Source: Thermoplasmata archaeon (lineage in GTDB: Archaea; Thermoplasmatota; Thermoplasmata; RBG-16-68-12; JAGMCJ01). Taken from it: a stretch of 47,309 bases of DNA. A program made the translations under genes and the position numbers. The notes under the pieces were generated by a model that had not been told where the DNA came from, made no database searches, and was given only the letters and a program-made list of their open reading frames with translations. This document shows, one piece after another, positions 4,472 through 46,209 of the stretch. The stretch is taken from contig JAGMAI010000020.1 in NCBI GenBank assembly GCA_023130895.1, positions 1-47,309 on the forward strand. The letters run 5' to 3'. Every line of letters starts with the position of its first letter. The stretch's first letter is position 1.

Positions 4472-4707
4472 GCAACACTCAGTAAATACCGAGCTGTCTG
4501 ATTCTCACTGAGACCGTTCCGTACGTCCAGATTCATCCTCCACTGAGGCTAGGAAGACTCAGGTTGTCATAAGGAAGGTTCTATGCGAGCCTTTGCCCAC
4601 AACTGGTCTTGACCTGACCTCCTCAAAGATGTTCTCTGAAGAGGAGAATACTACAGGTCTCCGAAATCGTTGAGTTCTATTGACATATTCAGTCAGTGGG
4701 GAGAGGA

Positions 4708-11261: not shown

Positions 11262-11695
11262 TTGAATGATTCTCTATTATAATATCGTTATGAAGATGTT
11301 AATGTTACGTCTGCAGGTCCGTATTTAACGCTTGTCCAGAGATGTCTGATTCACGTCAGTGTTTCAGGAGAGCAATTGAACAGTGGGCGATGGTTGCCCG
11401 AGTCATGGGGACGATCGATGATCGTCAGCCCAGACGGCTGGTCTGAGAAAATGTCTTGTCCAGGACGGTGTCCTGCATCAGGAGAGAATACTTGGTAGTT
11501 GTGCCGTCCTGGACAACCGACTGCATATTGGAGGGATAGATCGGGACATGTCCTGTCCCGCGTTGCAGTCGGGTATGACATGAACTCTATTGAGTGAGTC
11601 AAGTCTATTGGTACACTGTTTTGTGGAATGATTCCCGGAAACCAAGAGAGAATTGCAGCCGACAGCTGCTCTTGAAACGTCAGACCCTCATTGAA

Positions 11696-12290
11696 CTACG
11701 TCACTTCGATTATCCAGTCCACGTCAGACTCCACCTTCACCCAATACCCTTATCCTGGCTGAAGAACCTCCGCGTCTCCTGGCACTCTCAGATGATACGG
11801 AGGCGTGGGATTGTTGCCCTCCACACGCACCGCTCCCATCATCTTGACATCGTACACAGTATAAGAGGAATTGAACGAAGGGAAAGAGACAAGATTCCAT
11901 CCCTCGCACGGATGCATCATAGTCTGGGGAGGGACAATTCCTGCCACTGTGAGATTCGAGAGTCCTCTGTCACGTCTACCCATGCTCCTGTGGTGCGATT
12001 CACGCTCCACAGACCTCTCCTGTAGCCCTTGGAGGTCATGTGCCACCTCCATTCGTGGGAGGAGGAGTCGTAGAACCATGCATTGTCGTTGTCGTATTGC
12101 ACTGTCTGACGAACGGTCTGGATGCTCTCGTTGGACTGGATGAGCGGGACGGAGACGAGGTTCGGATCTCGAGAGAGAGCGGAAGCGTGACCTTGGCGGC
12201 TTGAACGTTGCAGCAAGCTACGTTGTTGTACGGTCCTAATGCAGATTGGACGCAGGTAGGTAATTCGCTTGTGGAGGGATCAAAACACGT
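11696..12290 (-). pseudogene. Decayed 3' fragment paralogous to the C-terminal domain of the beta-helix surface protein at 15101-16882
   Basis: Three reading frames together reproduce the C-terminal part of the paralogue. NVQAAKVTLPLSL / PNLVSVPLIQSNESIQTV / NLTVAGIVPPQT...GWNLVSFPSF...RVEGN...GDAEVL / GYWVKVESDVDWII correspond to QVAKFTRPLSLGPNLISIPLIQSNESIEAI...NLTVAGIVPTQT...GWNLVSFPSF...RVEGY...GDAEVLLAGEAYWIEVDADVDWMV. There are at least two frameshifts and one in-frame TAA. Confidence 0.75.
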
Positions 12291-13711: not shown

Positions 13712-14641
13712 TTACGAAACTAGGGGAATATCCGCAGATTGTCTGATGGAGGCGCTCTTCTTGGACAGTATCCATTGCGCCAGTTCGTGGAATCCCCTCT
13801 CCACGTTCATTCCGGTTTTGGCGCTAGTGAAGATGAACGGAGAGCCGATCCTTCGCGAATACTTTGCCACATCCTTCCTGTCAAAATCGAACTGATCCTC
13901 CAGGTCCGTCTTGTTGGCAACGATGCACACAGGCACCTTTCCCGTCGCATGGAAGATGGAAGACTTCCAGCCCTCCAGGCTTCTCAGAGTCTCGTTTCGC
14001 GTGACATCGCAGACGGCGAGGATGCCCTGCATCCCCTTGAAATGGGACTCCATGTAGAGGTCTGCGATGCTCCTCTTCCCCATTATGTCCCAGACCATCA
14101 TGACGACTCTCATTTGCTTTCCTCTCGGGAGGGGAACCAACATCTCCTTCTTTGACACCTTTGCTCCTATCGTCTTCACGTACTTGTCATCGAACTGATC
14201 CAAGACGAATTTTCTGATGAGACTGGTCTTCCCCACCCCCGCATCACCAACAATGCCCACCTTGAACTTGGCAACTTCCCACTTGCGGTTCCTCGTCTCT
14301 TCTGCGGCCTCTGAGACCATCCTCATCTCGTAGTCCATTCCTGCAACCTTCAAGAGGTACTTCATCTTGGTGATTGCCGAGTGAACTGCCCGTATCATGT
14401 TCTCGTCTTTCGACAGAGCGTCCTTGGGAACAGTAAGAATGAGCCTGTCTTCCTCGAGTATCCAACCCTCGGATTCCAGGACATTCGAGAGCATCGCCAG
14501 TCTCATGTCCTCTCGTTTCACGAGAACCTCGAAGGTTATCCTTCCCTCCTTGCTCGTCTCTCTCAGATCACGGCCCCTGGGAATCCCGTCCAGCAGTATC
14601 TTCTTGCTCCCAGGTTTCATTGACATCACCGATGGCATCAC
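13712..14641 (-). CDS. Ras-superfamily (Rab/Ras-like) small GTPase with an N-terminal extension of about 125 aa
   Basis: G1 is GDAGVGKTS, G2 is YVKTIG, G3 is WDIMGKR, G4 is NKTD and G5 is TSAKTG, all in canonical order and spacing. GTG at 14641 or ATG at 14638 could be the start. Confidence 0.85.
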   Translation of the reverse strand: MMPSVMSMKPGSKKILLDGIPRGRDLRETSKEGRITFEVLVKREDMRLAMLSNVLESEGWILEEDRLILTVPKDALSKDENMIRAVHSAITKMKYLLKVAGMDYEMRMVSEAAEETRNRKWEVAKFKVGIVGDAGVGKTSLIRKFVLDQFDDKYVKTIGAKVSKKEMLVPLPRGKQMRVVMMVWDIMGKRSIADLYMESHFKGMQGILAVCDVTRNETLRSLEGWKSSIFHATGKVPVCIVANKTDLEDQFDFDRKDVAKYSRRIGSPFIFTSAKTGMNVERGFHELAQWILSKKSASIRQSADIPLVS

Positions 14642-15100: not shown

Positions 15101-16882
15101 CTATGACCCTTCCACCATCCAGTCCACGTCCGCATCCACTTCTATCCAGTACGCCTCTCCCGCCAGAAGCACTTCCGCGTCTCCAAGCGTCCTCAGGAAG
15201 TAAGGGGGGGCAAGGTCATATCCCTCTACTCTCATGGCACCAATCTCCGCCTTCAGGTCTGCAACGGTGTATGTAGTGCTGAATGAGGGAAATGACACAA
15301 GATTCCATCCTGCTGTCAGGTGAATCGAGGTTTGAGTGGGAACGATTCCTGCCACAGTGAGGTTCGAGTCCTCTGTCACGTTGACCCATATACCCTGGGT
15401 GTGATCCATATTCCATAAGCCTCTCCTATATTCCTTTTGTTTCATGAACCACGTCCATTCTTGGGAGGAAGAATTGCAGGACCAGACCTTATCGTACTTG
15501 ACCGTCTGAAGGATTGCCTCGATACTCTCATTGGATTGGATGAGAGGAATGGAGATGAGGTTCGGACCCAGAGAGAGTGGGCGGGTGAATTTGGCTACCT
15601 GGGTCTCTGGACAACTCTGATTGTGGTAGACATCTGCTGCACATACCTGATAGAAGTAGTTGGCCTGATCCCCTTCTCCGACTGAAGCGTCCGTGAAGGT
15701 TGTTGTGCCATTGGGAAGAGCGGTGATGAACTGGTAGCTTAGTCCAGAGGAATCGTATACTTTTCCCCTGTAGACCTCGTAGCCGACAACAGATTTCAAT
15801 CCCTGTCCATCATCAGGAGAGAGAGCCCATGCTATTGTGACGTTCTCCAGGTCGGTGCCGCTGAGAGTGGCTCGGAGAATTGCTGGCGGGCGCATGGGAA
15901 GAGGCGTCACGGGGGACATAAGCGGGTACCTGTCCTGAGTGTCCACATCCACATCATAAGGAGTGTCACCTATACCATCGCTCCCCGGCAGATCCTGATC
16001 AGGACCACTTAGAAAGTCATTTCCCGAATAATCACTCCAGTAGTTGCCTCCGTTGGGATAGCCATCATCCCAGTAGTCGTTGAATCCTTGCACATCGAGA
16101 CCTTGTTGAGTGTTGTTTATGAAAACATTGTGATAGACATGGCATCCAGCGGGCTGAATCAAATACATCCCCACATCGTTGTCAATCAGAACGTTCTCTG
16201 TAACGGTTACGTTAGTGGGAAACTGAATAAGGGTTATGCCCCAATAGCTGTTCATGATGTAGTTCTTGATTATAGTAACGTTAGTCCCCCACCCCGTCAG
16301 CCAAATTGCGGCTTGAAAGATAGTGGTAAACCAGTTGTTGGCGATGGTGACGTTCTCCCCCCAATCGACGAGAACGCCATGCCTACAGTATGGGTTAGTC
16401 TCATTATCCCTGACACCGTAGAAAGTATTGTTGACGATTGAGATATTGGAGACAACTATAGCATCTATGTTGTTCTGACTGTTGAAGAAAGTAGATTGCT
16501 CTATTGACCCATTGGATACGTTCCACAAGTGGATGCCAGCATACTGAGGCCAGTCCCCGTAGAAGCCGTCATGGATATTGACATCGCGGATGACGAAATG
16601 TGCGTCGGTGCGGCGTATTTCTATGCCATGACCCGTTGAAGCATTGATTTCCCATCCTTCTATGATGTAAGGGTCCGATACCGTTCCGCTTCCACCAGTT
16701 ACGCCGTTGTCCGGCGTGAAGTCTCCATTTCCGTCAATGAAGATTGGGGCATGTGGTGCATGGGCAGAAGCTTCTTCTATCTGAGAAACGACTGGGCACA
16801 TGGAGATAATCGTGAGCACGGCAAAGAGAGTTGCTGCTTTGATTCGTCTATTCATTCCATCGATCATAACGTCATGACTCAA
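15101..16882 (-). CDS. Secreted right-handed parallel beta-helix (NosD/PbH1-like) protein with a C-terminal domain shared with the pseudogene at 11.7-12.3 kb
   Basis: There is an N-terminal signal/TM segment (AATLFAVLTIISMCPVV). DPYIIEGWEIN is followed by a periodic series of N-x-(S/T)-I-x-(N/D)N-type turns (VSNISIVNNTF, ENVTIANNWF, TNVTIIKNYI, TNVTVTENVL). Confidence 0.8.
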   Translation of the reverse strand: MSHDVMIDGMNRRIKAATLFAVLTIISMCPVVSQIEEASAHAPHAPIFIDGNGDFTPDNGVTGGSGTVSDPYIIEGWEINASTGHGIEIRRTDAHFVIRDVNIHDGFYGDWPQYAGIHLWNVSNGSIEQSTFFNSQNNIDAIVVSNISIVNNTFYGVRDNETNPYCRHGVLVDWGENVTIANNWFTTIFQAAIWLTGWGTNVTIIKNYIMNSYWGITLIQFPTNVTVTENVLIDNDVGMYLIQPAGCHVYHNVFINNTQQGLDVQGFNDYWDDGYPNGGNYWSDYSGNDFLSGPDQDLPGSDGIGDTPYDVDVDTQDRYPLMSPVTPLPMRPPAILRATLSGTDLENVTIAWALSPDDGQGLKSVVGYEVYRGKVYDSSGLSYQFITALPNGTTTFTDASVGEGDQANYFYQVCAADVYHNQSCPETQVAKFTRPLSLGPNLISIPLIQSNESIEAILQTVKYDKVWSCNSSSQEWTWFMKQKEYRRGLWNMDHTQGIWVNVTEDSNLTVAGIVPTQTSIHLTAGWNLVSFPSFSTTYTVADLKAEIGAMRVEGYDLAPPYFLRTLGDAEVLLAGEAYWIEVDADVDWMVEGS

Positions 16883-33075: not shown

Positions 33076-33573
33076 ATGACAGAAGAACTCAGTGATGAAA
33101 GGAAGGATGAAATCAAGAGATACCTGTGGGAGAAGTTCTCGATCAAGACCGAAAACATCAGTGTGTATGACGAAACTTTCACTCACAGCACGTGTGGGAT
33201 TCCCAACAATCAGAGACTCGCGTTTCTTGGTGATCGCGTCTTTGACCTCATTGTAGCTGAGCATCTACTCAACACGCATCCCGGCTGTGTGAGTGGAATG
33301 CTCGATGGTGAGAGACAGAGAATCCACAATGAGACTGCTCAGACTGCAATGGCGAAGGAGATAGGTCTGATTGGACCCATGGTCTTCGGGAAGACCTATG
33401 AGAACATCCCGAAGGAAGAGCTTGAGAAGAACACAACGATCATGTCCGAAGCTCTGGAAGCAATGCTCGGAGCTATGTACTCCGACAAGGGGTTGGAGAA
33501 AGCGAGAGGAGTCTTAGTTGGACTCGTCCCCCAATCAAGGAATACCAATAAGCCAGGACTGAGAGTTCGTTAG
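33076..33573 (+). CDS. RNase III catalytic-domain protein without a dsRBD (Mini-III-like)
   Basis: 165 aa. The RNase III signature is NQRLAFLGDRVFDLIV (Mini-III-type LA-x-x-GD rather than LEFLGD). The second catalytic motif is MSEALEAMLGAMYSDKG. No C-terminal dsRNA-binding domain is present. Confidence 0.75.
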   Translation: MTEELSDERKDEIKRYLWEKFSIKTENISVYDETFTHSTCGIPNNQRLAFLGDRVFDLIVAEHLLNTHPGCVSGMLDGERQRIHNETAQTAMAKEIGLIGPMVFGKTYENIPKEELEKNTTIMSEALEAMLGAMYSDKGLEKARGVLVGLVPQSRNTNKPGLRVR

Positions 33574-33577
33574 GCAG

Positions 33578-36500
33578 CTAGCCTCCCTTGGATTCAACAT
33601 CAACAACGGTCTTGTCTGAAGTTTCCCATCCCTCTATCAAGACCTCCCCTTTGTGGACAAGACGGATCTTCGGATTATCTATCGGATTCTTGACTATCTC
33701 AATGCGCGGTGTGCTTCCCTTTTTCAGATTCTCAACCTTGTAGATGTAGTATTTCTTCTTGTCCTTGCGAGCTCTGTCGTATTGAGAGGGTCGAAGCTTG
33801 ATGTTGGACCTCCTTCCTTTCGAAGCCTTGATTTCGATTAGACGATCCCCTCCTTTGCCCGACGAAATCAAATCGCAACCTTCCTCATCATATTCCCTTA
33901 CGTCCATGACGTTCTCTCGGCGTTGAGATTGCTCGAACAGTCTCACGACTTCGACGGCAATGTCTTCCGTCATCCGGGACGAAAACGGAGTATATGTCGT
34001 TGAGATATCCTTCTTTCTACGCCTCTTCTGGGCCCTGGGTTTTCTTCTCCTAACTGGGATGTTTGTGGTCTTCCCTGTCTTGATGCCTTTCACGATGAAA
34101 CCGTGTATCGTCTCAATCGGGAAGACCTCCTCCTCTTTGCTCTCGGGTGTTGGTGCTTTGGGCGGTTTCGTGACGACGTCGACAACTTCACCTATCTCTT
34201 CTTCTAAATACTCCTCAGGGACCTCAGGTTCTTCTGCGGCTGTAGGGAGCTTGACCACTTGGCTCACATCCTCGACGTATTTTTTGAATACCGGGCCCTT
34301 TTCTAGTCCCCATTTCTTGATGACGATGTCGAGGTCATCTGGGTTCTGGTGCAGGTCATTGACCAAGGGCTCCAAATGAGGGCTCAAGGGTCCGAAGATT
34401 GAGGCAACACATCTTGAGAAGTCGCCTCTTGCGGCCTCAAGCCAGGGGTCGTTGTCTGCATTGGACACTGCGAGTTCTCCTCCAGACAAGAATACGGACA
34501 CGTTGCCTCTCATCCGTCGCTTTCCATCCAAGTAGTATGCCACCTTGATATTCCGTGCCGTGAAAATCCTCAGTTGCTCGAGTCTCGAGATGTTGTCCCT
34601 TTGCTCGTCGTATGAAGTGCTGAACCGGTTCTCGATGAATGCTTCAATGATCTCACAGAATTCCCTGAACTTCTCTTGATCATCCTCGTGAATGGCCTTC
34701 TTCTCAACGTATTTGGCCTTTCTTCTCTTCCTGAGGCTCCGTAGTGATTTGAAGCCGATTCTCATCAGTGATGATGAAATGGATGTTATCTCGGCATTGT
34801 ACCACAGAGTATTGACTACGTCTTTGAAGACATTATGGATTTTATCATCATCCATCAGGTAGGTCTCACTCGGCCTCGGGAATTCATCCTTCTCGGTCAG
34901 AAACACGCTTTCGTCAAGCGTCCTGAGGTCATCATCAGAGGTGGATTCGTCCTGAATCAGTCGACTCAGTCCCTCCAGGGCATAAATGATTCTCCCTTTG
35001 AGTTCTTGTTTCCTGTCGGTGGAGGCCTCTCCATACTCCTTCTTGATTCGCTCAAGGATGACTTTGTATTCCAAGAGAGCCGGAGCGCCTCTTACACCCA
35101 AGGACGTGAAGACCTTTGCGAGTGCTGTATCGTACGCTCCCTCTTGGAACAGTGGCTGATAGTGCGGTTTGAGTGAGTAGTCAATTGCCTCAGCAGCAAA
35201 GACCTGATCCCTGTGCCACCAGAGCTTCATCCTTCCTCCCACTCTTGCGGGGAGGAAGACTAGGAATTTCTTGGAGAATACATCTTCTATCGCATCTTTC
35301 AAATCACCCTCAGCCTCAGATTTCTCGATCAGATACTCATAATGTGATTCCGTTATGCGAAAACCATCCGATGGTATCTTCCGAATACTGTCCCACCGTG
35401 CTTTTGTCTCTTGCAGCCTCTTAAGCACATCCTCGGGCCTTGGCTCTTCGACGACTCCAATCTCTCGATAGAACTCCTTTGACCCGGACGGTATACGAAT
35501 GAAATCGCAGCCTGGTGGTGCTAGATGTCTGTTCCGTGTAGTGTCAACGTATACCATGGAAGGAGGTATTAGTCTTCCATCTGCAGATCTCGGGAACCAA
35601 GGTCTCCTGAGTTCTTGCAGGAGGGACGAGTCCATCTTGAAGTCACCTGGTGAGTAGTGGAAATAGAAAACCTGGACCCTTCGAAAAGGCTGGTATTTCT
35701 TCCAGTTCCTCGCAATGCTTTCACGGATCAGAACCAACTGGTGCTTCAAACGCCTTCTCTTGGCTGTGTCTTTCTCCTCGTTGTATTTCCGCACCGTCTC
35801 TGTCAACTCGGGCATTGTCCAGTCTTCAAACTCATATCCACGCGTTGAGTCGTATTCACCGGACCAATTGACGCCCGAGAAGTCTTTCTTCAGTCTTGAG
35901 TCCCATCGACTATAACGCCTATTGATACAAACCACTCGCGGAGTGTCCCAACAGCCCATTAGCTCAAAGAAATCATCCCAAGAATACGTTTTGCGTCTCT
36001 TCTTTGCCCCTGAGATCGGTATGCTGGTAAAACCACCTATGACTCTCTTCGAGAAGTACTTCCTCGATAGAAAGGGTACGTCAGTCAGACTCCGGAACTG
36101 GTTCTCGTGCAACAGTCTCCTCTTCTCACCACGTCTGTAGACCTCTACCGGTGGCAGGAAGACATTCCTCTTCTTGCCCCCCGAGTCTCTCATCTCTGCG
36201 ATTAGGAGGATTCTCGACCTGATGTCCGAAAAAATGTCCCAATCATCCGTCTTCCTAAGGCTTCTTCCATACTCGCTTCGATAGTATGATAGGTTCTCAA
36301 CGATGTACTTTGTGAAAAGAACAGCTCTCTTGTAGCTCATACGCTTTCCATCTCGCACTTCCTCGAATCTCGGCAGAATGAGTCTTGTGATGATGTGGTG
36401 TGCTTCAACCGTCCCTATTACACCGAGCGTCTCGAAGAGCCTGTGCACCTTATCGAGTCGCGGGTCGTAGTTCTTGTTCCTCTTCTGACTTCGCGATATC

Positions 36501-38119
36501 CTGAACGCTCTGTGGAGGAATATCAATTCGTGCTTGCCAAATAGCTCGGTGAAGAACGCCGTCTGTCTGTTCATGTACTGATTGGCGATTAGCCTGGGCT
36601 TTTCCGTTTTGATTGGATCCCGGGGTTGAACAAGCTCACCATTCTCGGATAGGAGAATCGGGATGTCCATCAAGCTCCTCTTGTCAAATTCATCGAGATT
36701 CTCATACACGTAAGAATAGACGGATACAAACCAATCAGGGTTGGAGGTCTTCGTCTTTATGTTCTTGCCATTACTGAAGAAGGTCTGGATATCTTCAGGT
36801 CCGAATTCATCGAGACCTAGCAGAGACAGGCTATCTCTTTCCGACTCAGTATATTCATCAGATATCGCGGCTTTGTCGCTTCCGTAGATGTCCCTGAGGT
36901 CGTCATTGTTGAGTAAATCCCACAGTTCATGAGGAAGGTTCACAGATTCTCTGGGTGTCCTGAAATCCTTGTCTCTGGTATATGATGTCCTTTTCCCTTT
37001 CAGATTCTCATAGATGTCCTCGATGTATCTGCTGAACAGCTCGTCATGACACCTGTCTTCTAGGGGAAGGAATGACATGATTCGGATTCTGAGAGCCGAG
37101 TCGGCCTTGAGGGCCTCAAATGCGTCCCCCACCAATTGCGGCAAGTGGCTCAGCAGATGCTTGTTCCAAGGGTGGTCTTCATCGATGTTGCTTCTGCCCA
37201 GTATTGGCAGGAAATCGCCCTGAACTACGAAAGCGTACCCAGTCAATCGCTCTGTCGGCAAATAGCAGAATAGCTTCTGAGGAGGGCGAGGGTCTTCGGA
37301 ACCCAGAGGGAATGCCAAAGCCATCTCGGTTTCCCTCACTTCTTCTTTTCCTGTCGGTCTTAGAATGCTCTCTGGCACGTCGATTGTCTTCTTGAACACT
37401 CTCCATCTCGATTCGCTTCCTGTGAACGAATTCCTCAGAATACCACGTCTGAGGTCGTAGGATAGGGTGTAGGTCTCTTCTTCCTCTCCTCTCCTGTCAA
37501 CGATGTAAATCCTTCTAGTTCGGTCAAGAAACAGCAATAGGTACTCCTTTGTCTCTTCTAGGAGCCTTTCAAGTACTCTGTCGCATTCCTCCTGAGATTT
37601 CGATGTCAGGACGAAAATCGCGCCCTTCTTGGAATTAAATTCTACATCCTTAGGAATTCTGTTGCAGGGCTCTGGATGATAGTAGTCATCAATCACGAAA
37701 TTGAATCTTCCGGATATTATGTGGGGGCTATCCGTCACTCTCTTAACCGACTTGAATCCGATTCCAAAGAATCCCTTTTTGTTCTTCTTTAGGCTATGTC
37801 CCGCATAACATATCGTTCTGACATCGTCTCTTGAGAACTTCCTTCCGTTGTTCGTCACAACAATCCTGGCATCCTTTTCGAAGTAGAATCTGATTTCCGT
37901 AGCTTTCTCGTCGTCAGCATTCTGTATCATTTCCAGTGCGAAATGAGAAGGTGATGAGTAGACACTCTGAGAGACGAAATCTGTCAGTCTCCTGACCAAT
38001 GGATCGTCTCGATATTTCTCATTCTCATTGGCGACCTTCCGAATGAAATCGTGGTCCCATTCCCATTCAAAGACTATTGCCTCACCCCCACACGCTTTTG
38101 GAGCGGCAAGTTGAATCAT
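33578..38119 (-). CDS. Giant sacsin-like GHKL (HATPase_c) ATPase with a C-terminal DUF3883-type PD-(D/E)xK nuclease-like domain
   Basis: 1513 aa. The N-terminus is HFALEMIQNADDEKATEIRFYF...VVTNNGRKFSRDDVRTI...KKGFFGIGFKSV...SPHIISG, the sacsin/MORC-type Bergerat fold. The C-terminus is EEGCDLISSGKGGDRLIEIKASKGRRSNIKLRPSQYDRARKDKKKYYIYKVENL, the DUF3883 pattern. No P-loop was found in the roughly 1100 aa between them. Confidence 0.8.
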   Translation of the reverse strand: MIQLAAPKACGGEAIVFEWEWDHDFIRKVANENEKYRDDPLVRRLTDFVSQSVYSSPSHFALEMIQNADDEKATEIRFYFEKDARIVVTNNGRKFSRDDVRTICYAGHSLKKNKKGFFGIGFKSVKRVTDSPHIISGRFNFVIDDYYHPEPCNRIPKDVEFNSKKGAIFVLTSKSQEECDRVLERLLEETKEYLLLFLDRTRRIYIVDRRGEEEETYTLSYDLRRGILRNSFTGSESRWRVFKKTIDVPESILRPTGKEEVRETEMALAFPLGSEDPRPPQKLFCYLPTERLTGYAFVVQGDFLPILGRSNIDEDHPWNKHLLSHLPQLVGDAFEALKADSALRIRIMSFLPLEDRCHDELFSRYIEDIYENLKGKRTSYTRDKDFRTPRESVNLPHELWDLLNNDDLRDIYGSDKAAISDEYTESERDSLSLLGLDEFGPEDIQTFFSNGKNIKTKTSNPDWFVSVYSYVYENLDEFDKRSLMDIPILLSENGELVQPRDPIKTEKPRLIANQYMNRQTAFFTELFGKHELIFLHRAFRISRSQKRNKNYDPRLDKVHRLFETLGVIGTVEAHHIITRLILPRFEEVRDGKRMSYKRAVLFTKYIVENLSYYRSEYGRSLRKTDDWDIFSDIRSRILLIAEMRDSGGKKRNVFLPPVEVYRRGEKRRLLHENQFRSLTDVPFLSRKYFSKRVIGGFTSIPISGAKKRRKTYSWDDFFELMGCWDTPRVVCINRRYSRWDSRLKKDFSGVNWSGEYDSTRGYEFEDWTMPELTETVRKYNEEKDTAKRRRLKHQLVLIRESIARNWKKYQPFRRVQVFYFHYSPGDFKMDSSLLQELRRPWFPRSADGRLIPPSMVYVDTTRNRHLAPPGCDFIRIPSGSKEFYREIGVVEEPRPEDVLKRLQETKARWDSIRKIPSDGFRITESHYEYLIEKSEAEGDLKDAIEDVFSKKFLVFLPARVGGRMKLWWHRDQVFAAEAIDYSLKPHYQPLFQEGAYDTALAKVFTSLGVRGAPALLEYKVILERIKKEYGEASTDRKQELKGRIIYALEGLSRLIQDESTSDDDLRTLDESVFLTEKDEFPRPSETYLMDDDKIHNVFKDVVNTLWYNAEITSISSSLMRIGFKSLRSLRKRRKAKYVEKKAIHEDDQEKFREFCEIIEAFIENRFSTSYDEQRDNISRLEQLRIFTARNIKVAYYLDGKRRMRGNVSVFLSGGELAVSNADNDPWLEAARGDFSRCVASIFGPLSPHLEPLVNDLHQNPDDLDIVIKKWGLEKGPVFKKYVEDVSQVVKLPTAAEEPEVPEEYLEEEIGEVVDVVTKPPKAPTPESKEEEVFPIETIHGFIVKGIKTGKTTNIPVRRRKPRAQKRRRKKDISTTYTPFSSRMTEDIAVEVVRLFEQSQRRENVMDVREYDEEGCDLISSGKGGDRLIEIKASKGRRSNIKLRPSQYDRARKDKKKYYIYKVENLKKGSTPRIEIVKNPIDNPKIRLVHKGEVLIEGWETSDKTVVDVESKGG

Positions 38120-38341
38120 GATTGGACTTCATATTGTTTTCGACTTGACCACGAATGTAGCAGGGGATTCTCAGGAGTCAAGTGTGAATTGAAGTGAGAG
38201 AGGTCTTGATGAACCTGCTCCGTTCACTTCGTCTCCTGTCTGCCGTCCTTGAATTGTCGATGGGTGGGCCTTGTCTCGGAACAGGGTAGCCCTTCACGAA
38301 AACTCTAAGATGTTCAAACCGATTGGACAATCGAGGATCTC

Positions 38342-38911
38342 ATGATGAACAAGCAAGAGATGATTGAGGCAATGATGGCCTTCTTTGAGACAGGACAAGA
38401 AATCTACGGCGTTTGTCCCTGCTGCAGCGAAATCTTCAGAGTCAGCGAGATGCAGATCTTCTATGGAAAGGAGCCTCCCGTTGACTGGCTAGGCAGACTA
38501 AGAGATAGAGAAGGAAAACTCGAGGAGAGCAAGAAGCTGTTTGAACAAGATAAGAAGAGAATCATCGAGAAGGCAATCGAGCAGTCTCTCGCAATTCGAA
38601 TCGGAAAAACGCTGGAGCATATTGCACCAATCATCCCGCAGCTTGGGCACCATCCTAGCGATGTCAGAGCCTTGTTCAACCCGATTGACTACGTCGCATT
38701 CAACGGAATGTTTGAGAAGAAGGATATCGACAACATCTCGTTCATAGAAATCAAGACCGGGAAGTCATCGTTGACGACTATCCAAAGAAGAATCCGTGAT
38801 GCCATCAACGATGGACGCGTCGAATGGAAGCTGTACAACATAACAGACCTCATTGAAGATGAACTGAAGAGGTCGAATCAGGATAGTCGCATCCTGAAGG
38901 ATTTCATGTAA
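38342..38911 (+). CDS. Endonuclease related to the archaeal Holliday junction resolvase (COG4741-like), with an N-terminal CxxC and coiled coil
   Basis: 189 aa. CPCCSEIF and a coiled coil are followed by PSDVRALFNPIDYVAFNG...ISFIEIKTGKSSLTTIQRRIRDAINDGRVEW, a D...E-x-K nuclease core with the family-typical tail. Confidence 0.6.
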   Translation: MMNKQEMIEAMMAFFETGQEIYGVCPCCSEIFRVSEMQIFYGKEPPVDWLGRLRDREGKLEESKKLFEQDKKRIIEKAIEQSLAIRIGKTLEHIAPIIPQLGHHPSDVRALFNPIDYVAFNGMFEKKDIDNISFIEIKTGKSSLTTIQRRIRDAINDGRVEWKLYNITDLIEDELKRSNQDSRILKDFM

Positions 38912-38939
38912 CAGGTGCAGGTTCGCAGAAGGGTTATCC

Positions 38940-39545
38940 ATGATCGGTCGCGATGATGTGGAAAAGCGGCTTGGAACGCTGGACGCCGAGATAAGACAAT
39001 GCAATCTCTGTCCAGAAAGAGACCAGTTTCCTGCGACTTCCAGGACATTTCAGCTTGGCAGTCAGAAGAACGTCCTTTTCATTGGCAGGGACCCTGCAAA
39101 GGAAGGTTGGCGGAAGTCGGGGACAGCCTTCTTCAAGACTGACGGCAGCATGCTTCAATCAGGAAAGATCTTCAGCAATCAGCTGAAGGAAGTCGGGATG
39201 GAAATCGAAGACATCACATTCGTGGAGCTCATCAAGTGTTTTCCGGTTGGCGATAAGATGCGAAATCCCAGAAGAAGCGAAATCGAGAATTGTAGACGCT
39301 GGCTTGACCGCCAAATGGGCATTCTCAGGCCAAAGGTCATAGTTCCCATGGGAAAGGAGTGCTATGAGTTCTTCCGCAGGAAAAGAGTGAGTTCTCTCTC
39401 AGCGTGTATCGAGAGAACGGAAAGTGTGTCCTACCACGGCATTCCTGTTGTTCCGATCTTTCACCCATCTAGTGCAAATCAGAAGTGCAATTGGAGGAAT
39501 GTTGTCATTCTGAAGGGTATCATGGAGGAATTCGGAGGTGACTGA
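38940..39545 (+). CDS. Uracil-DNA glycosylase superfamily protein (family 4/5-like Fe-S scaffold, atypical motif A)
   Basis: 201 aa. Four Cys sit in the family-4 arrangement (QCNLC ... IKCFP ... x16 ... ENCRRWL). Motif A is VLFIGRDPAKEG instead of GE(A/G)PG. Motif B is VVPIFHPSS. The order and spacing of the motifs match UDG family 4. Confidence 0.7.
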   Translation: MIGRDDVEKRLGTLDAEIRQCNLCPERDQFPATSRTFQLGSQKNVLFIGRDPAKEGWRKSGTAFFKTDGSMLQSGKIFSNQLKEVGMEIEDITFVELIKCFPVGDKMRNPRRSEIENCRRWLDRQMGILRPKVIVPMGKECYEFFRRKRVSSLSACIERTESVSYHGIPVVPIFHPSSANQKCNWRNVVILKGIMEEFGGD

Positions 39546-39986
39546 TTGGTGCTTGTAATAGGTGAGGACGATCTGAGGAGAATAAGGGAAATTCTGGAAC
39601 AAGGATGGTCAGAGGAGACAGCACACAACCGTGAGGAATGGCGAAAGTCGCTGTGCAGGAGCAACGGACAGTGCTATGGTACAGCTAGGACGGTGAATCG
39701 TGTGTTTGAGTGGGAGATTATACGTATACGGGTTCCAGGGAAAGGTGTCGACCACTATTGGAATCGAATGCCCGATGGAAGAGACATTGATTTCACGTCT
39801 GACCAGTTCGGAGGTGACGGCATTCACAAAGTCGAAGATTGGCAAGGTACACTGGTAAGAAGGGGCTACAAGACCATCAATCCGCGGTTAAGGAGATATC
39901 TGAAGGTAGTCGAAGGACCTTTGAGGATATTCAAACAAGAACTGGAGTCAAGAGAACCAGGGAAAGACGAAGGAGGAAAGACATGA
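39546..39986 (+). CDS. YunG-like protein (function unknown)
   Basis: 146 aa (TTG at 39546 or GTG at 39549), abutting the UDG stop. SNGQCYGTARTV...VDHYWNRMPDGRDIDFTSDQF resembles the GQC...HYWN...D-x-T-x-x-QF pattern that I recall for YunG-family proteins. Confidence 0.4.
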   Translation: MVLVIGEDDLRRIREILEQGWSEETAHNREEWRKSLCRSNGQCYGTARTVNRVFEWEIIRIRVPGKGVDHYWNRMPDGRDIDFTSDQFGGDGIHKVEDWQGTLVRRGYKTINPRLRRYLKVVEGPLRIFKQELESREPGKDEGGKT

Positions 39987-40531
39987 ATGACATAGATGCG
40001 GCAATCAACAAGGCAAAGACCGACCTGTTTGAATACTTCTCAATGTCGCCAAGTGTGGTCTGGAAAGAAGAGGATCTGCAGTCGTACCTCTATCATCGAT
40101 TGCTGATTTACGAGCCAAGGCTGAAGAAGAGACTACATCGAGAGTTCCCAGTTGTCAGGTCGTTTAAGAATCGTGACTGGGCGGGAATGCTGGACCTGGC
40201 CATCACAGAAGAGAGCAATAGCAACTTCAGGGTTTTGGATGTCAAAGTCGAATACGCCATTGAACTGAAATTCCTGAGGAATTGGGAAACTGGGTCGAGC
40301 CCCAGAAGCCTCGCCAAGTTCGAGAAAGAGTGCAGGGAGGATGTTGGAAAGCTGAGAACGAGGGCAGTGAACTTCAATGATGATACGAAGAAGTACTTCT
40401 TCGCGCTCAGACTCACGGATGTCCGACAGACTCATGAGGTTCGGAGGATCTTCGAAGAAATGGACTGGGGCGGCATTGAGCACGGCTACATTGAGTGCTA
40501 CACTGACGGTTCAGAATCTCAAGTGCTATAA
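39983..40531 (+). CDS. Hypothetical protein with a PD-(D/E)xK-like motif
   Basis: 182 aa from the ATG at 39983, in an ATGA overlap with the upstream stop. GMLDLAITEE...VEYAIELKF gives a D...E-x-K arrangement. The ORF track extends the frame upstream to 39839. Confidence 0.45.
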   Translation: MNDIDAAINKAKTDLFEYFSMSPSVVWKEEDLQSYLYHRLLIYEPRLKKRLHREFPVVRSFKNRDWAGMLDLAITEESNSNFRVLDVKVEYAIELKFLRNWETGSSPRSLAKFEKECREDVGKLRTRAVNFNDDTKKYFFALRLTDVRQTHEVRRIFEEMDWGGIEHGYIECYTDGSESQVL

Positions 40532-41045: not shown

Positions 41046-42335
41046 CTAGCGCGGAAGCCTAAGGACCACCTTCTCGTTCGGAAGAGATGTGACGAACTCC
41101 CATCCTTCCTCAAGATACCCCTCAATCTCATCAATTGAGATTGCCTTCTGACTGCAGTTGCTGTTCCCCTTTGTGCTGAGCAGTCGGTCACGAACAGTTT
41201 CCCTGAGCTTGTCTTCTGCCAGATCAAGAAGATCGTCCTTCTCCATCTCTTCATCGGTGAAACCAGCCATCCGAAGCAATTCTGCACGAAACATTCGCTT
41301 CAGGTCTTCTCCTTTGGGAGACTCGGGCACTGTGGTCTGGAGGTGCTCTTGGCTTTTTCTGTATGCTTCCCGCATGTCGTCTATTATGTGAGGCGGAAGT
41401 CTGTTCTTGTTCGTGGTATATGTGTGCTCGATATCACCTTTATGTCCCATCCACAGTGTACGATAGTCCCTGAGGACGAGACCCTTTGATTCCGCGAACA
41501 TCAGTTGGGTGTCGAAATAGGAACGCAACACGTAGGGCCGCCAAGAGAAGCCTGCCTTTCTTATCGACCTTCGAATGGTCTCGCTCACCTTCGTTGTGGA
41601 AATGAACCTCTTGGCTGCTGTCTTCGGCTTGAGTATCGAAGAGCGTCTGCCAAACTTCTCGCCCTCCCTGAGCCTCTCTTCCAGGTAGTCCTTCAGATAA
41701 TCACAGCCCTCTTCGGAGAGGAAGGTGATGTACTTGTGTCCTGCCTTGCTGAGCTCTGGTCTCACGACAATCATTGCTGGTACCTCTGAGAACTCTATAG
41801 TGTCTCCTTTGATCTGGAGTTCGGGGATGTCGCCTATCCGAAGACCATCGTCACCCAGATATGCCCCCAATGACTGGAGCCTCAACCCTGAATGAGCCAC
41901 CAAAACACAAGCAACTCTGCTCTTCTTGTCTCCAGAGAGGAGTATCTTCTTCAGTTCTTGGGGCGTTGGAACTCTCTCATCCTTCAGTGTTGGGAACGTG
42001 TTTCCGCCTCTAATCTTTATCTTCTTCGTCAGGACCTTGTCATTGTGTGTAAGCCACGATTTGAGCGCTCGCATTATCGATCCGATATAGGAACCCGCCT
42101 TTCCCTCTCCTTCGAGTTCGCTTACATAGTCTAGCAGGATCGCATAGAGTTCCTTCTCGCTCTTCCCAGCGAGTTCCTTGGGAGTCGTCTCTTGTCTCAC
42201 ACAGAAGTTCCCGAGACGTCTGAGGTAAACATCAGCTGTTACAACAGAACCCCTAGCGTTGTTATCATACCACCTTCGGACTTCCGGGTCCTCGAGCAGT
42301 TCTCTGTAACGCAGTCCCCTTGCTTTTTTCGTCAC
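41046..42335 (-). CDS. Tyrosine recombinase / integrase
   Basis: 429 aa. The catalytic-core pattern is VAHSGLRLQSL (Arg I), SKAGHKY (Lys), RPYVLRSYF (Arg II), LWMGHKG (His) and IEHTYT (Tyr nucleophile). The gene lies next to the tRNA 3' end. Confidence 0.85.
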   Translation of the reverse strand: MTKKARGLRYRELLEDPEVRRWYDNNARGSVVTADVYLRRLGNFCVRQETTPKELAGKSEKELYAILLDYVSELEGEGKAGSYIGSIMRALKSWLTHNDKVLTKKIKIRGGNTFPTLKDERVPTPQELKKILLSGDKKSRVACVLVAHSGLRLQSLGAYLGDDGLRIGDIPELQIKGDTIEFSEVPAMIVVRPELSKAGHKYITFLSEEGCDYLKDYLEERLREGEKFGRRSSILKPKTAAKRFISTTKVSETIRRSIRKAGFSWRPYVLRSYFDTQLMFAESKGLVLRDYRTLWMGHKGDIEHTYTTNKNRLPPHIIDDMREAYRKSQEHLQTTVPESPKGEDLKRMFRAELLRMAGFTDEEMEKDDLLDLAEDKLRETVRDRLLSTKGNSNCSQKAISIDEIEGYLEEGWEFVTSLPNEKVVLRLPR

Positions 42336-42385
42336 AAGACGTAATCGGCGTCCTCATATTAGAGCGTTTCGAACCGCTATCAGTA

Positions 42386-42458
42386 TGGGCTCAGCCGGAT
42401 TCGAACCGGCGACCTTCTCTGTGTGAGAGAGACGTCATAACCGCTAGACCATGAGCCC
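42386..42458 (-). tRNA. tRNA-Val: tRNA-Val (anticodon CAC)
   Basis: The reverse complement reads GGGCTCA TG GTCT AGCGGTTA TGAC G TCTCT CTCACAC AGAGA AGGTC GCCGG TTCGAAT CCGGC TGAGCCC A. It forms a 73-nt cloverleaf with a 7-bp acceptor stem, 5-bp anticodon and T stems, a T-loop TTCGAAT, and anticodon CAC at positions 34-36. No CCA is encoded. Confidence 0.85.
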
Positions 42459-44974: not shown

Positions 44975-45202
44975 ATGAAGGAGCTCGACGCGCTGCAGGA
45001 GGAATACGAGCGATGGAGGTTCAGGCGGAAGGACCTCGAGGGAAATCTCAGAGAACTGGCACGGGAAGAGAGTGATGTTCTTAGGGAGCTCGCGAGAGTG
45101 GAGGGTCAGATATCGTACTACGACTCCCTGGAGAGCGATATGAAGAAGGAGCTCGAACCGCCCCGGCTCTCAGACCTCCTGAGTTCGTTGAGGAAGAGGT
45201 GA
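44975..45202 (+). CDS. Small coiled-coil protein (75 aa)
   Basis: The sequence is MKELDALQEEYERWRFRRKDLEGNLRELAREESDVLRELARVEGQISYYD. The stop overlaps the GTG start of mtnA. Confidence 0.45.
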   Translation: MKELDALQEEYERWRFRRKDLEGNLRELAREESDVLRELARVEGQISYYDSLESDMKKELEPPRLSDLLSSLRKR

Positions 45203-46209
45203 GCTTCTTGCGGGTCGTTGTCGACGGCAGGGTCCGCGACATCAAGACGGTATGGATGTCGAACGGTGTCGTATGGCTGATCGAGCAGAACCTTCTACCG
45301 TTCGAGGTCCAGTTCTTCAAGGCGGAGACGGTAGAGGACGTTGCCAGGGCGATAGAGACCATGGTTGTGCGGGGCGCTCCGGCCATCGGAGCTACGGCGG
45401 CCTACGGGATCGCTCTTGCGGCCTTGAAGAGAGAACCGCTGGATGAAGCCGCCGAGAGATTGAGGGCCACCCGACCCACGGCCTACGACCTGTTCTATGC
45501 CATTGACCACGTGCTCGAGGAGATTGAGAAGGGGACTCCTCCAGTCAAGGCGGCCGACGACTATGCCGCTCGGATTTCGGACATGTGCAAGAGGATCGGT
45601 GAGAACGGCGATGAAGTGATAAGGAACGGGGATTCCATCCTCACACACTGCAACGCTGGAGCGTTGGCGACAGTTGACCACGGAACCGCCCTCGCGCCCA
45701 TGAGAGAGGCGCACAGGAACGGCAAGAAGATCTTCGTCTATGTCGACGAGACCCGCCCAAGATTGCAGGGAGCGAAGCTGACCGCCTGGGAGCTGTCCAA
45801 CGAGGGCATAAACTATGCGATCATCGTGGACAACGCGGCGGGGCGACTGATGCAGTCGGGAGAGGTGGACGTCGTCATCGTTGGGGCGGACAGAATAGCG
45901 GCGAACGGAGATGTCGCGAACAAGATAGGGACGTACGAGAAGGCCCTTATCGCCAAGGACAACAGTGTACCGTTCTACGTCGCAGCACCCACGAGCACGA
46001 TAGACTTCTCTCTCCCGGAGGGTCAGAGCATCCCCATTGAGGAGAGGAGCGAGAGCGAGGTCCTGTACATCGGTGGGAGGAGCATAGCCCCGAAAGGATC
46101 AAAGGCAAGGAACCCGGCGTTCGACGTCACATCCAAAGATCTGATCACGGGCATAATCACTGAGAGGGGAATATACAAACCGTATGAACTGAGGAACTTG
46201 CAGGGGTAG
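45199..46209 (+). CDS. mtnA: S-methyl-5-thioribose-1-phosphate isomerase (eIF-2B alpha/beta/delta family)
   Basis: LIEQNLLPFE, MVVRGAPAIGATAAYG, RPTAYDLFYAI, THCNAGALATVDHGTAL, VYVDETRPRLQGAKLTAWEL, VIVGADRIAANGDVANKIGTY and PFYVAAPTSTID. Confidence 0.85.
   Translation: MSFLRVVVDGRVRDIKTVWMSNGVVWLIEQNLLPFEVQFFKAETVEDVARAIETMVVRGAPAIGATAAYGIALAALKREPLDEAAERLRATRPTAYDLFYAIDHVLEEIEKGTPPVKAADDYAARISDMCKRIGENGDEVIRNGDSILTHCNAGALATVDHGTALAPMREAHRNGKKIFVYVDETRPRLQGAKLTAWELSNEGINYAIIVDNAAGRLMQSGEVDVVIVGADRIAANGDVANKIGTYEKALIAKDNSVPFYVAAPTSTIDFSLPEGQSIPIEERSESEVLYIGGRSIAPKGSKARNPAFDVTSKDLITGIITERGIYKPYELRNLQG

Follow-up and report, generated by a model that had tools for sequence, protein, structure and literature searches.

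Does a gene for a 1513-aa protein, lying beside an integrase in the genome of an uncultured Thermoplasmata archaeon, encode an antiviral system, and if so does it act alone or with its neighbours? We address these questions in a window of 47,309 nucleotides, the whole stretch of DNA that was analysed, on which an earlier note had put the gene forward as a single-gene defence candidate. The features discussed are collected in Table 1.

Identity and extent of the gene

The ORF list and translation confirm an ATG-initiated frame with all of the N- and C-terminal motifs that the earlier note had quoted. The public gene call (P0001) gives only 1450 aa and begins at M64. The longer start is the right one, because a start at M64 drops the conserved H59 and the catalytic E63.

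The full-length protein matches the PADLOC TmtA model PDLC03972 with E 1.1e-102: aa 24-1481 (96% of the protein) align to positions 5-1286 of the 1302-position profile (98%). Of the nine TmtA models, eight score E below 1e-14. In addition, NCBIfam finds a sacsin N-terminal ATP-binding-like domain (E 1.5e-19), Pfam finds SACS at aa 40-145 (E 3.6e-14) and NOV_C (DUF3883) at aa 1385-1472 (E 9.2e-10), and profile matches to sacsin SR1 crystal structures reach E ~1e-18, all of them far beyond what chance would give. The PADLOC matches place the gene in Tiamat (TmtA), an already described single-gene anti-phage system, as a divergent representative from an archaeon. The PADLOC search that the earlier note had suggested thus bears out the assignment to defence, although the candidate is not new.

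Tiamat was introduced as a defence system by Millman et al. (2022), with its mechanism recorded as unknown, and has models in both PADLOC and DefenseFinder. The literature lists it as a single-gene PD-(D/E)XK system and already reports archaeal genomes that carry it. The earlier note had seen an architecture without an established mechanism; the architecture turns out to have a name, while the Tiamat literature indeed offers no mechanism. The likeness to Tiamat is one of end-to-end profile, with a GHKL-type ATPase, a long middle region, a DUF3883/NOV_C nuclease and a stand-alone position in defence or mobile contexts. The difference is that the present protein is archaeal and belongs to a divergent clade; the experimentally validated Tiamat is bacterial.

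The homologues collected are mostly about 1500 aa long. Close relatives all fall into one 50%-identity cluster, and the clade is sparsely sampled and divergent, with a per-domain identity to the next clusters of only 23-38%. The middle region, used as query, retrieved 49 clusters from 1.84 billion proteins.

Table 1. Features of the tmtA-like gene and its surroundings in the window
Feature	Position	Strand	Basis or remarks
Complete tmtA-like gene	33578..38119	-	1513 aa plus stop codon (33578-33580); PADLOC TmtA match, 435 homologues
N-terminal segment, aa 1-39, possible GHKL 'strap'	38003..38119	-	Poorly conserved; strap suggested by GHKL enzymes generally
Bergerat-fold ATP-binding domain, aa 40-200	37520..38002	-	Pfam SACS, NCBIfam sacsin N-terminal, PDB sequence search
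Second GHKL domain (Hsp90-middle/transducer-like), aa 201-345	37085..37519	-	AF2 structure matches; residue conservation
About 7 tandem alpha/beta repeats, aa 346-1285	34265..37084	-	Profile self-comparison, AF2
Approximate repeat units (aa)			346-455, 456-590, 591-785, 786-905, 906-1030, 1031-1140, 1141-1285
'LGV-like' anchors of the repeats (aa)			433, 564, 720, 886, 1006, 1120, 1269
Disordered linker, aa 1286-1375 (~90 aa)	33995..34264	-	Acidic/proline-rich, then basic patch RRRKPRAQKRRRKK
Predicted NOV_C/DUF3883 PD-(D/E)xK nuclease domain, aa 1376-1513	33581..33994	-	Pfam NOV_C; conserved residues
Divergent intergenic spacer, 222 bp	38120..38341	.	Sequence read; expected place of the tmtA promoter
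Tyrosine integrase (41046-42335) and tRNA-Val (42386-42458)	41046..42458	-	Mark the right-hand limit of the low-GC variable region that holds tmtA

Domain organisation of the protein

The ATP-binding motifs are EMIQNADDE (aa 63-71), NNGRKFSRDD (aa 89-98), FFGIGFKSV (aa 117-125) and SPHIISG (aa 131-137). Among 45-60 homologues, E63, N67, D70, N90, F95, K111, G116, G119, G121 and F122 are invariant or at least 90% conserved, and each has its counterpart in the sacsin/Hsp90 ATP site as tabulated in PMC9880540; the residues shared with sacsin include Phe95, the lid Lys and an Asn that replaces the Hsp90 Asp79-equivalent. Upstream, aa 1-25 are weakly conserved (gap fraction 0.57), and AF2 gives aa 1-11 a pLDDT below 50 and then predicts a short strand and a helix (aa 23-32). 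In the second domain R309 and N319 are invariant and D302, F303 and W318 are conserved; R309 would be the equivalent of Hsp90 R380 and sacsin R474.

A PDB sequence search with the N-terminus matched sacsin SR1, TRAP1 and HtpG, with sacsin best. The AF2 model of aa 1-350 (pLDDT 88.3, pTM 0.87) aligns over 370-400 columns (E 4e-11 to 1e-9) with two-domain GHKL ATPases: closed Hsc82/Hsp90, TRAP1, GyrB 43K, ParE and 3h4l, a MutL-family (GHKL) N-terminal domain from a DNA-repair protein. Sequence and model together show aa 40-345 to be a GHKL ATPase of the Hsp90/sacsin type, built of two domains and with its ATP site complete. Of the sacsin/MORC-type label given earlier, the sacsin-type Bergerat fold is recovered by Pfam, NCBIfam and PDB searches, but the MORC half finds no specific support: sacsin, Hsp90/TRAP1, GyrB/ParE and 3h4l match best, and no MORC stands in the top 50. 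Unlike sacsin, TmtA lacks DnaJ, HEPN and Ubl domains, and its ATPase is fused to a nuclease; the resemblance does not imply a chaperone function.

The region between the two ends, in which the earlier note had recognised no motif, instead consists of tandem repeats. When the array profile is compared with itself, off-diagonal matches appear with 99% probability and E 3e-18 at a shift of ~110-125 aa, as well as at other shifts. The signal recurs in an independent, distant bacterial subset (E 1.8e-14), and the controls were clean (E 0.3-0.4), so by sequence criteria the repeats are real. AF2 modelling folded the array confidently (pLDDT 87.7). Repeats 3 and 4 are strongly basic, with net charges of +20 and +10, while most repeats are not. 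The array evolves faster than both enzymatic ends, with identities of 58/23/17% against 68/38/30% for the ATPase. No relative of the array turned up in BFVD or in the PDB, where the best match had E 0.54 and TM stayed below 0.1.

From about aa 1279 on, AF2 pLDDT falls below 50. The linker that follows is the least conserved segment of the protein, yet it has a similar length in all homologues, and its basic patch is retained in the close clade. The last ~110 aa contain CDLIS (D1416), RLIEIKASKG (E1429, K1431), LRPSQYDRA and YYIYKV, and E1385/E1390 supply the helix-1 Glu of the domain. The earlier note would have taken a loss of catalytic residues here as evidence against its proposal; across homologues D1416 and K1431 never vary and E1429 is kept in at least 90%. 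The only PDB sequence matches of this domain are sub-threshold ones to Hjc resolvase, with D and ExK in register. With its Pfam match and an intact D...ExK, the earlier assignment of aa 1376-1513 to a restriction-endonuclease-fold nuclease is supported. In HmaA, experiments have shown the NOV_C domain to be a nickase on which defence depends (PMC11232893).

Neighbours, mobility and defence context

The neighbours of tmtA lie where the earlier note had placed them. A convergent RNase III-domain gene (33076-33573, + strand) ends 4 bp from the tmtA stop, and a divergent Endonuc_Holl/UDG/YunG operon (38342-40531) lies across the intergenic spacer. The integrase is identified by Pfam Phage_integrase and a weak XerA-like NCBIfam match, and the tRNA-Val by ARAGORN and Rfam. 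GC content lies at 0.55-0.59 on the right-hand side of the tRNA and drops to about 0.46-0.53 on the left. Neither an att direct repeat nor a left border of the island was found in the window, which also carries a type I M and S pair with an NsnB/AriA-like ATPase.

Could tmtA be one component of a multi-gene system with the RNase III-like gene, the divergent operon, or both? The close spacing and shared divergent spacer would fit such an arrangement, and the earlier note had proposed looking for co-occurrence with the operon. However, tblastn of the tmtA neighbours against 90 homologue loci gave a single RNase III-like match, about 7 kb away (locus L059), and Endonuc_Holl, UDG, YunG, orf230 and the integrase were found at none of the 90. 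No neighbour matches any PADLOC model. Moreover, each of the six close homologues (58-62% identity) has its own, unrelated context, with entirely different neighbours: one with type I RM, Schlafen-AlbA2 and NYN, one each with a TIR-Mrr protein, an MmeI-type RM, a TIR protein and a serine recombinase, and the sixth on a bacterial contig alongside ORF6N. The RNase III-like gene and the operon thus appear not to be linked to tmtA, and we regard a multi-gene system as very improbable.

Proteins this similar in unrelated archaeal and bacterial contexts imply horizontal transfer. Neighbours across 33 genome loci include OLD/GajA/AriA, BrxL/PglZ, type III MTase and MADS genes as well as integrases, and overall RM, TIR, BREX and OLD/Gabija-like genes and recombinases adjoin homologues; a lack of such company was the other observation that the earlier note had said would count against it. 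These contexts support the view that tmtA acts by itself, amid mobile or defence genes. A different view is that TmtA is a cellular protein without a defence role which sits in a variable region by chance; it might, for instance, serve in chromatin or repair or as a chaperone, much as NO VEIN or sacsin do. Plasmids, phages and viral contigs carry few of the homologues, one survey found Tiamat almost always on chromosomes, and NO VEIN, which is collinear with the whole protein, has developmental roles and is not known as immune. Set against this are the patchy distribution and transfer between unrelated contexts, the defence-type neighbours, the low-GC position beside an integrase, and the match to models built from a defence system, and we consider a non-defence role improbable.

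A candidate mechanism and related machines

The reading that we favour, and hold to be fairly probable, is that archaeal TmtA is a single-polypeptide anti-virus or anti-plasmid mobile cassette that works as an ATP-gated nuclease clamp. ATP binding would dimerise the N-terminal domains and close the clamp, as in the GHKL machines MutL, GyrB and Hsp90. The fast-evolving repeat array, with its basic central units, may serve as scaffold and as sensor for invader nucleic acid. Clamp closure would then deliver the two flexibly tethered nuclease domains to DNA, and nicking or cutting would destroy the invader or abort the infection. We infer dimerisation, DNA binding and ATP-nuclease coupling by analogy; the sensor role of the array is a guess, since neither the PDB nor BFVD yielded a characterised relative.

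The ligand could also be a protein, because the nearest structural relatives of TmtA include the protein chaperones Hsp90 and sacsin. On this alternative a viral protein is the trigger, the ATPase and array form a chaperone-like 'client' sensor, and the nuclease is an indiscriminate abortive-infection effector. The best sequence and structure relatives (sacsin SR1, Hsc82/Hsp90, TRAP1, HtpG) are indeed protein chaperones, the rapid evolution of the array is what an arms-race sensor would show, and the majority of repeats are non-basic (R1 -10, R7 -6). However, GyrB, ParE and 3h4l score nearly as well as Hsp90, the central repeats and linker patch are strongly basic, and GHKL-nuclease fusions typically belong to machines that handle DNA (paraMORC3, MutL, VcSduA). 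A protein trigger therefore seems unlikely, if less so than the other alternatives.

How does the proposed nucleic acid-sensing clamp compare with these machines? MutL has an N-terminal GHKL ATPase, a long disordered linker and a C-terminal endonuclease, and its ATP-driven N-terminal dimerisation licenses nicking. TmtA shares this ATPase-linker-nuclease layout; the endonuclease fold of MutL is unrelated, its role is repair rather than defence, and the repeat array belongs to TmtA. ParaMORC3 (Iyer, Abhiman & Aravind 2008) couples GHKL and S5 domains to a C-terminal RE-fold nuclease and resembles TmtA as a stand-alone fusion of GHKL to an E-D-ExK restriction-fold nuclease, patchy in bacteria and archaea. 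It differs in that the TmtA GHKL domain is SACS/Hsp90-like, with MORC absent among the top structural matches, a ~950-aa array separates ATPase and nuclease, and the nuclease is NOV_C, not RecB-like. VcSduA (Shedu type I-D) likewise combines a GHKL ATPase and a PD-(D/E)xK nuclease in one protein, and the hypothesis of its authors is that a dimeric clamp governs the nuclease; its nuclease is DUF4263, however, the protein is much shorter, and the TmtA gene matches no Shedu model in PADLOC. HmaA has the same NOV_C effector domain and D...ExK triad, but it carries a Snf2 helicase motor instead of a GHKL ATPase and belongs to the Hma locus.

A by-product of the comparisons concerns the collinearity of eukaryotic NO VEIN (NOV) and NO VEIN-like proteins with the whole TmtA module, which extends over the ATPase (E 1e-81 to 1e-90), the array (E up to 1e-82) and NOV_C (E 1e-14 to 1e-18). 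NOV proteins differ by an extra N-terminal extension of 800-1300 aa, with OST-HTH in animals, and resemble a distant group of bacterial TmtA proteins (~340 bits) more than the clade of the archaeal gene (116 bits).

Family identity and the two enzymatic ends

The earlier note had put forward the ATG-initiated, 1513-codon ORF now called tmtA as a single-gene defence candidate whose architecture had no established mechanism. When compared with the profile models of PADLOC-DB, the protein matches PDLC03972, a model of the TmtA protein of the anti-phage system Tiamat, near full length (aa 24-1481 against profile positions 5-1286 of 1302; E 1.1e-102, 343 bits). Eight of the nine TmtA models match at E < 1e-14, the seven besides PDLC03972 spanning E 7e-95 to 6e-15 (PDLC03968, for example, at 6.9e-95). 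Judged by these profiles, the window gene is a divergent archaeal member of the Tiamat/TmtA family. It is probably a defence gene, as proposed, but not a new candidate: its architecture belongs to a kind already described, the mechanism alone being unexplained. The observation behind the note is confirmed and its interpretation partly supported. By itself the gene is one more Tiamat gene, here from an uncultured archaeon, so that the claim of a defence candidate adds little.

Tiamat was reportedly validated by phage challenge in the 2022 Cell Host Microbe study of Millman and colleagues. The literature lists it among the systems of Millman et al. 2022, gives its mechanism as unknown, and classes it as a single-gene PD-(D/E)XK system; Pseudomonas island hotspots often carry it as cargo, and it has been reported in 20 of 382 complete archaeal genomes. 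A literature search on the mechanism of Tiamat found no paper. Shedu (type I-D, VcSduA-like) was considered as another identity for the gene and rejected, as neither PADLOC nor Pfam gave a Shedu or DUF4263 match.

The public prediction of this gene (P0001) has 1450 aa and starts at M64 (window positions 37928-38119 hold the codons from M1 to M64). Because a start at M64 loses the conserved H59 and the catalytic E63, the long start at M1 is the correct one, and automated annotation may have systematically truncated the N-terminus of the clade. On the numbering from M1, the motifs first quoted for the protein all lie at the expected positions: EMIQNADDE at aa 63-71, NNGRKFSRDD at 89-98, FFGIGFKSV at 117-125 and SPHIISG at 131-137, with CDLIS, RLIEIKASKG, LRPSQYDRA and YYIYKV within the final ~110 residues.

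Two curated models identify the N-terminal ATPase above their thresholds, namely Pfam SACS (aa 40-145, E 3.6e-14, 53.6 bits against a cut-off of 32.8) and NCBIfam NF047352, the sacsin N-terminal ATP-binding-like domain (E 1.5e-19; 70.2 bits, the threshold being 50); Pfam HATPase_c scores under its cut-off. In alignments of 45-60 homologues, residues E63, Q66, N67, A68, D70, N90, F95, K111, G116, G119, G121, F122, K123, S124, V125 and S136 are invariant or at least 90% conserved, and the GxxGxGF motif is retained. The residues that PMC9880540 lists for the ATP sites of Hsp90 and sacsin map one to one onto this protein. Considering that the match to sacsin holds residue by residue, the replacement of DxGxG by NNG is a normal sacsin-type variant and not a defect.

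Correspondence of ATP-site residues among Hsp90, sacsin (both from PMC9880540) and the TmtA-like protein
Hsp90	Sacsin	TmtA-like protein
E33	E116	E63
N37	N120	N67
D40	D123	D70
D79	N160	N90
M84	F164	F95
G100	K180	K111
G118	G188	G116
G121	G191	G119
G123	G193	G121
F124	F194	F122

An AF2 model of aa 1-350 (pLDDT 88.3, pTM 0.87) aligns in Foldseek with two-domain GHKL ATPases over 370-400 columns (E 4e-11 to 1e-9, TM ~0.5), and the best 50 matches include closed Hsc82/Hsp90, TRAP1, GyrB 43K, ParE and sacsin SR1, as well as the MutL-family (GHKL) N-terminal domain of a DNA-repair protein (3h4l). The proposed sacsin-type ATPase therefore stands, while the MORC assignment made alongside it has been dropped, since SACS is the best Pfam family and no MORC protein appears among those 50 matches. 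In the second domain (aa 201-345), R309 is invariant within the consensus DFLPTxGRExI and is probably the counterpart of Hsp90 R380 and sacsin R474; a sub-profile of aa 265-345, searched against PDB sequences to tie R309 to Hsp90 R380, returned spurious matches only.

At the other end of the protein, a linker that AF2 predicts to be disordered from about aa 1279 to 1375 leads into the nuclease domain. It is acidic and proline-rich at first and strongly basic thereafter (RRRKPRAQKRRRKK); its length is about the same in all homologues, and members of the close clade retain the basic patch. The C-terminus was correctly described as a DUF3883 domain resembling restriction endonucleases: Pfam NOV_C, the same family, matches aa 1385-1472 (E 9.2e-10), and the restriction-fold signature is present as G-x-D, with D1416 invariant, followed by I-E-x-K, with K1431 invariant and E1429 at least 90% conserved. 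The possibility that this domain lacks conserved catalytic residues is thereby removed. A further acidic residue in the first helix is either E1385 or E1390, the register being ambiguous. Against PDB sequences, a C-terminal profile gave sub-threshold matches to Hjc/ST1444 only (E 0.14-1), with the motifs in register with Hjc. For the NOV_C domain of HmaA, DNA nicking has been demonstrated, and phage defence depends on the D/E/K triad there (PMC11232893). For TmtA, these residues together provide a list of ATPase and nuclease sites for mutation.

The repeat array and its counterpart in NO VEIN

The region between the two ends had been described as carrying no recognisable motif. That description does not hold, in that aa 346-1285 consist of about seven tandem repeats. 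When the profile of aa 340-1300 is compared with itself, off-diagonal matches appear at a shift of ~110-125 residues (probability 99%, E 3e-18), with additional matches at larger shifts, and the signal is reproduced in an independent subset of distant bacterial sequences (E 1.8e-14). Controls with the reversed profile (E 0.36) and with the N-terminal profile against the middle (E 0.32) were clean. Each unit runs from a long helix and a second helix through a beta-hairpin (P-h-h-x-x-x-G-x-h-x-P) and short helices and strands to a closing helix that ends h-h-x-x-LGV-x-x-x-P, the LGV anchors falling at aa 433, 564, 720, 886, 1006, 1120 and 1269.

AF2 models the region with confidence (aa 330-1310, mean pLDDT 87.7), and Foldseek found no relative of it in the PDB (best E 0.54, TM < 0.1) or among the BFVD viral models. 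What had seemed a 950-aa spacer is hence a confidently folded seven-repeat array that resembles neither a solved structure nor a viral model. Two of its units are strongly basic: repeat 3 has a net charge of +20 and repeat 4 one of +10. Identities to the close, mid and far groups of homologues are 58, 23 and 17% for the array, 68, 38 and 30% for the ATPase, and 69, 29 and 21% for the nuclease; by this sequence measure the array evolves faster than both enzymatic ends. A query with the array only retrieved 49 cluster representatives from 1.84 billion proteins, nearly all of them proteins of ~1500 aa aligned at the same position.

Does this three-part architecture occur outside prokaryotes? Three HMMs cut from the prokaryotic alignment (ATPase, array and NOV_C) were searched against NO VEIN-like proteins, members of a eukaryotic family, and all three match, in the same order, proteins of fish, bivalve, hagfish and the oomycete Phytophthora. 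E values are 1e-81 to 1e-90 for the ATPase, up to 1e-82 for the array (profile positions 7-930) and 1e-14 to 1e-18 for NOV_C, and the collinear block is carried by proteins P0066, P0070, P0077, P0089, P0098, P0109, P0112 and P0114. NO VEIN differs from TmtA in having an extra N-terminal extension of 800-1300 aa ahead of this block, and the collinearity of the three parts implies that NO VEIN consists of that extension followed by an entire TmtA module. The block in eukaryotes scores ~340 bits to the distant bacterial TmtA group and 116 bits to the clade of the window gene, so the donor lineage lies outside this archaeal clade.

No paper that names Tiamat together with NO VEIN came up in a literature search; others may already have made the connection. 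The link ties an uncharacterised immune protein of prokaryotes to a factor in plant development, so that the structure or biochemistry of any TmtA would inform both fields. A far-reaching reading, which we consider rather unlikely, is that TmtA and NO VEIN are one ancient machine, shared by archaea, bacteria, plants and animals, in which a hitherto undescribed sensor fold of seven repeats joins an Hsp90-type ATPase to a NOV_C nuclease; NO VEIN would still survey nucleic acids or act in immunity, an activity inherited from a Tiamat-like system, and the archaeal clade would sense archaeal viruses through its own fast-evolving array. The significance of the work is modest and lies in a mechanism still to be solved, a repeat fold not yet characterised and the tie to NO VEIN, with no new system discovered.

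Homologue neighbourhoods and a possible mechanism

A protein search yielded 435 homologues at E <= 1e-5, most of them ~1500 aa long with both Pfam domains, and 60 sequences entered the full-length alignment. By identity, relatives form three groups: the close clade, which is small, is at 58-62%; another clade, with a Methanomassiliicoccales MAG among its members, is at 26-30%; and a broad set of bacterial sequences is at ~20-25%. Genome scanning with an alignment as query located at least 542 loci in bacteria and archaea; the scan with a single protein as query gave no match. Plasmids yielded few relatives (9 records), as did viral contigs (14) and phages (1); these are distant and match in the N-terminal part only.

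Six close homologues occupy six unrelated neighbourhoods. One follows a type I hsdMSR operon, in the company of Schlafen-AlbA2 and NYN genes; two others adjoin a TIR-Mrr protein and an MmeI-type RM enzyme, respectively; a TIR protein is near the fourth and a serine recombinase near the fifth; and the sixth follows an ORF6N gene on a bacterial contig (GreA present). Families that recur among 115 nearest neighbours, taken from 33 genome loci, are OLD/GajA/AriA ATPases, BrxL, PglZ, a type III methyltransferase, MADS components and integrases. Defence-type neighbours are frequent in these raw lists, and homologues may be enriched near defence or mobile genes.

If tmtA worked as a multi-gene system together with the genes that flank it in the window, those genes should accompany it elsewhere. 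In a tblastn search of 90 homologue loci, the Endonuc_Holl, UDG, YunG, orf230 and integrase genes were all unmatched, and a single RNase III-like gene turned up, 7 kb away in locus L059. Co-occurrence with the divergent operon, a check proposed in the note, is accordingly 0 of 90; functional linkage to the window neighbours is rejected on this search, and a multi-gene system of that kind is unlikely. Six unrelated contexts and the missing window neighbours, which do not belong to it, indicate that tmtA is a self-contained cassette, passed from one lineage to another and often inserted amid defence genes. The exception is a proteobacterial subclade in which a gene for a ~570-aa NERD+UvrD helicase lies directly downstream on the same strand (loci L023, L027, L030, L037, L042, L047, L053, L055 and L065; for example L027:14806-16509). 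It matches PADLOC C3a187 / RTasNERD-Hel in 9-10 loci, and a simple D..(E/D)xK pattern is absent from the C-termini of most of the TmtA-like proteins linked to it. This subclade may be a two-gene variant with the nuclease supplied in trans.

How might the parts work together? In the protein, the ATPase and nuclease sites are both intact and are separated by the folded repeats, and there is a flexible tether; the layout resembles both MutL (GHKL, linker, endonuclease) and the Shedu protein VcSduA (GHKL plus nuclease). By analogy with MutL, GyrB, Hsp90 and VcSduA, the N-terminal domains would dimerise on ATP binding and close a clamp; the array would engage invader nucleic acid through its basic centre; and clamp closure would put two tethered PD-(D/E)xK domains onto the DNA, with nicking or cleavage as the result. 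The outcome could be either direct restriction of the invader or abortive infection. In the main alternative, the protein belongs to the same TmtA family and is triggered by a viral protein, as the kinship of its ATPase with Hsp90 and sacsin might suggest. A non-defence cellular role is unlikely for a family with stand-alone mobility in defence contexts.

The candidate island and the other genes of the window

Features of the window
Feature	Position	Strand	Remark
Type I RM methylase, specificity subunit and ABC-type ATPase genes	915-5943	+	712, 473 and 415 aa
ORF of 523 aa	8281-9852	-	no Pfam match
Six tandem 156-bp (52-aa) units	8552-9516		inside ORF 8281-9852; ~70% identity
Small ORF	11594-12025		
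Segment of ~220 nt	11872-12089		72-73% identical to 15280-15495
Small GTPase-domain gene	13712-14641	-	309 aa; Ras/Roc type (Pfam Ras, E 4e-30)
Beta-helix/NosD gene	15101-16882		
Segment of ~220 nt	15280-15495		72-73% identical to 11872-12089
RNase III-domain gene	33076-33573	+	165 aa; convergent with tmtA, 4 bp between stop codons
tmtA	33578-38119	-	1513 aa
Four-gene operon	38342-40531	+	divergent from tmtA across a 222-bp spacer
Tyrosine integrase gene and tRNA-Val(CAC)	41046-42458		the integrase gene directly adjoins the tRNA; marked step in GC
S-methyl-5-thioribose-1-phosphate isomerase gene	45199-46209		core gene, right of the tRNA

The isomerase shares 91% identity with Thermoplasmata MAG proteins, which identifies the host as an uncultured archaeon of the Thermoplasmata. 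On the right-hand side of tRNA-Val the GC content is 0.55-0.59; on the left-hand side, where tmtA is located, it is ~0.46-0.53. An Rfam scan of the window found tRNA only. The idea of an integrase-bearing island is supported by the integrase, the tRNA flank and the distinct GC, but its left border is undefined and no att repeat was found: the 3' part of tRNA-Val is not directly repeated anywhere in the 47-kb window with up to 3 mismatches allowed, so the island either exceeds 42 kb or is degraded.

Both neighbours that had been described on either side of tmtA are present as stated. The convergent gene encodes an RNase III catalytic domain alone, without a dsRBD (mini-III-like), on an archaeal contig, and its score of 80.7 bits is far under the bacterial RNase III equivalog cut-off of 166 bits. 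The divergent operon comprises an Endonuc_Holl (Hjc-related) nuclease, a family-4-like uracil-DNA glycosylase (UDG) that falls short of the NCBIfam cut-offs, a member of the YunG family and an ORF of 230 aa (orf230) that overlaps and has no family. None of its genes has a PADLOC match, and the operon might be a repair module carried by the island or an anti-virus module in its own right.

The far-left cluster is a second defence cluster, ~28 kb from tmtA; its ATPase finds its best PADLOC matches in NsnB, PDC-M55A, AriA and AbiLi, and no HsdR gene for the cluster was seen in the window. Other features to the left of tmtA include the repeat-containing 523-aa ORF and the small GTPase-domain gene, and the identity of the two ~220-nt segments points to partial paralogy between the small ORF and the beta-helix/NosD gene.
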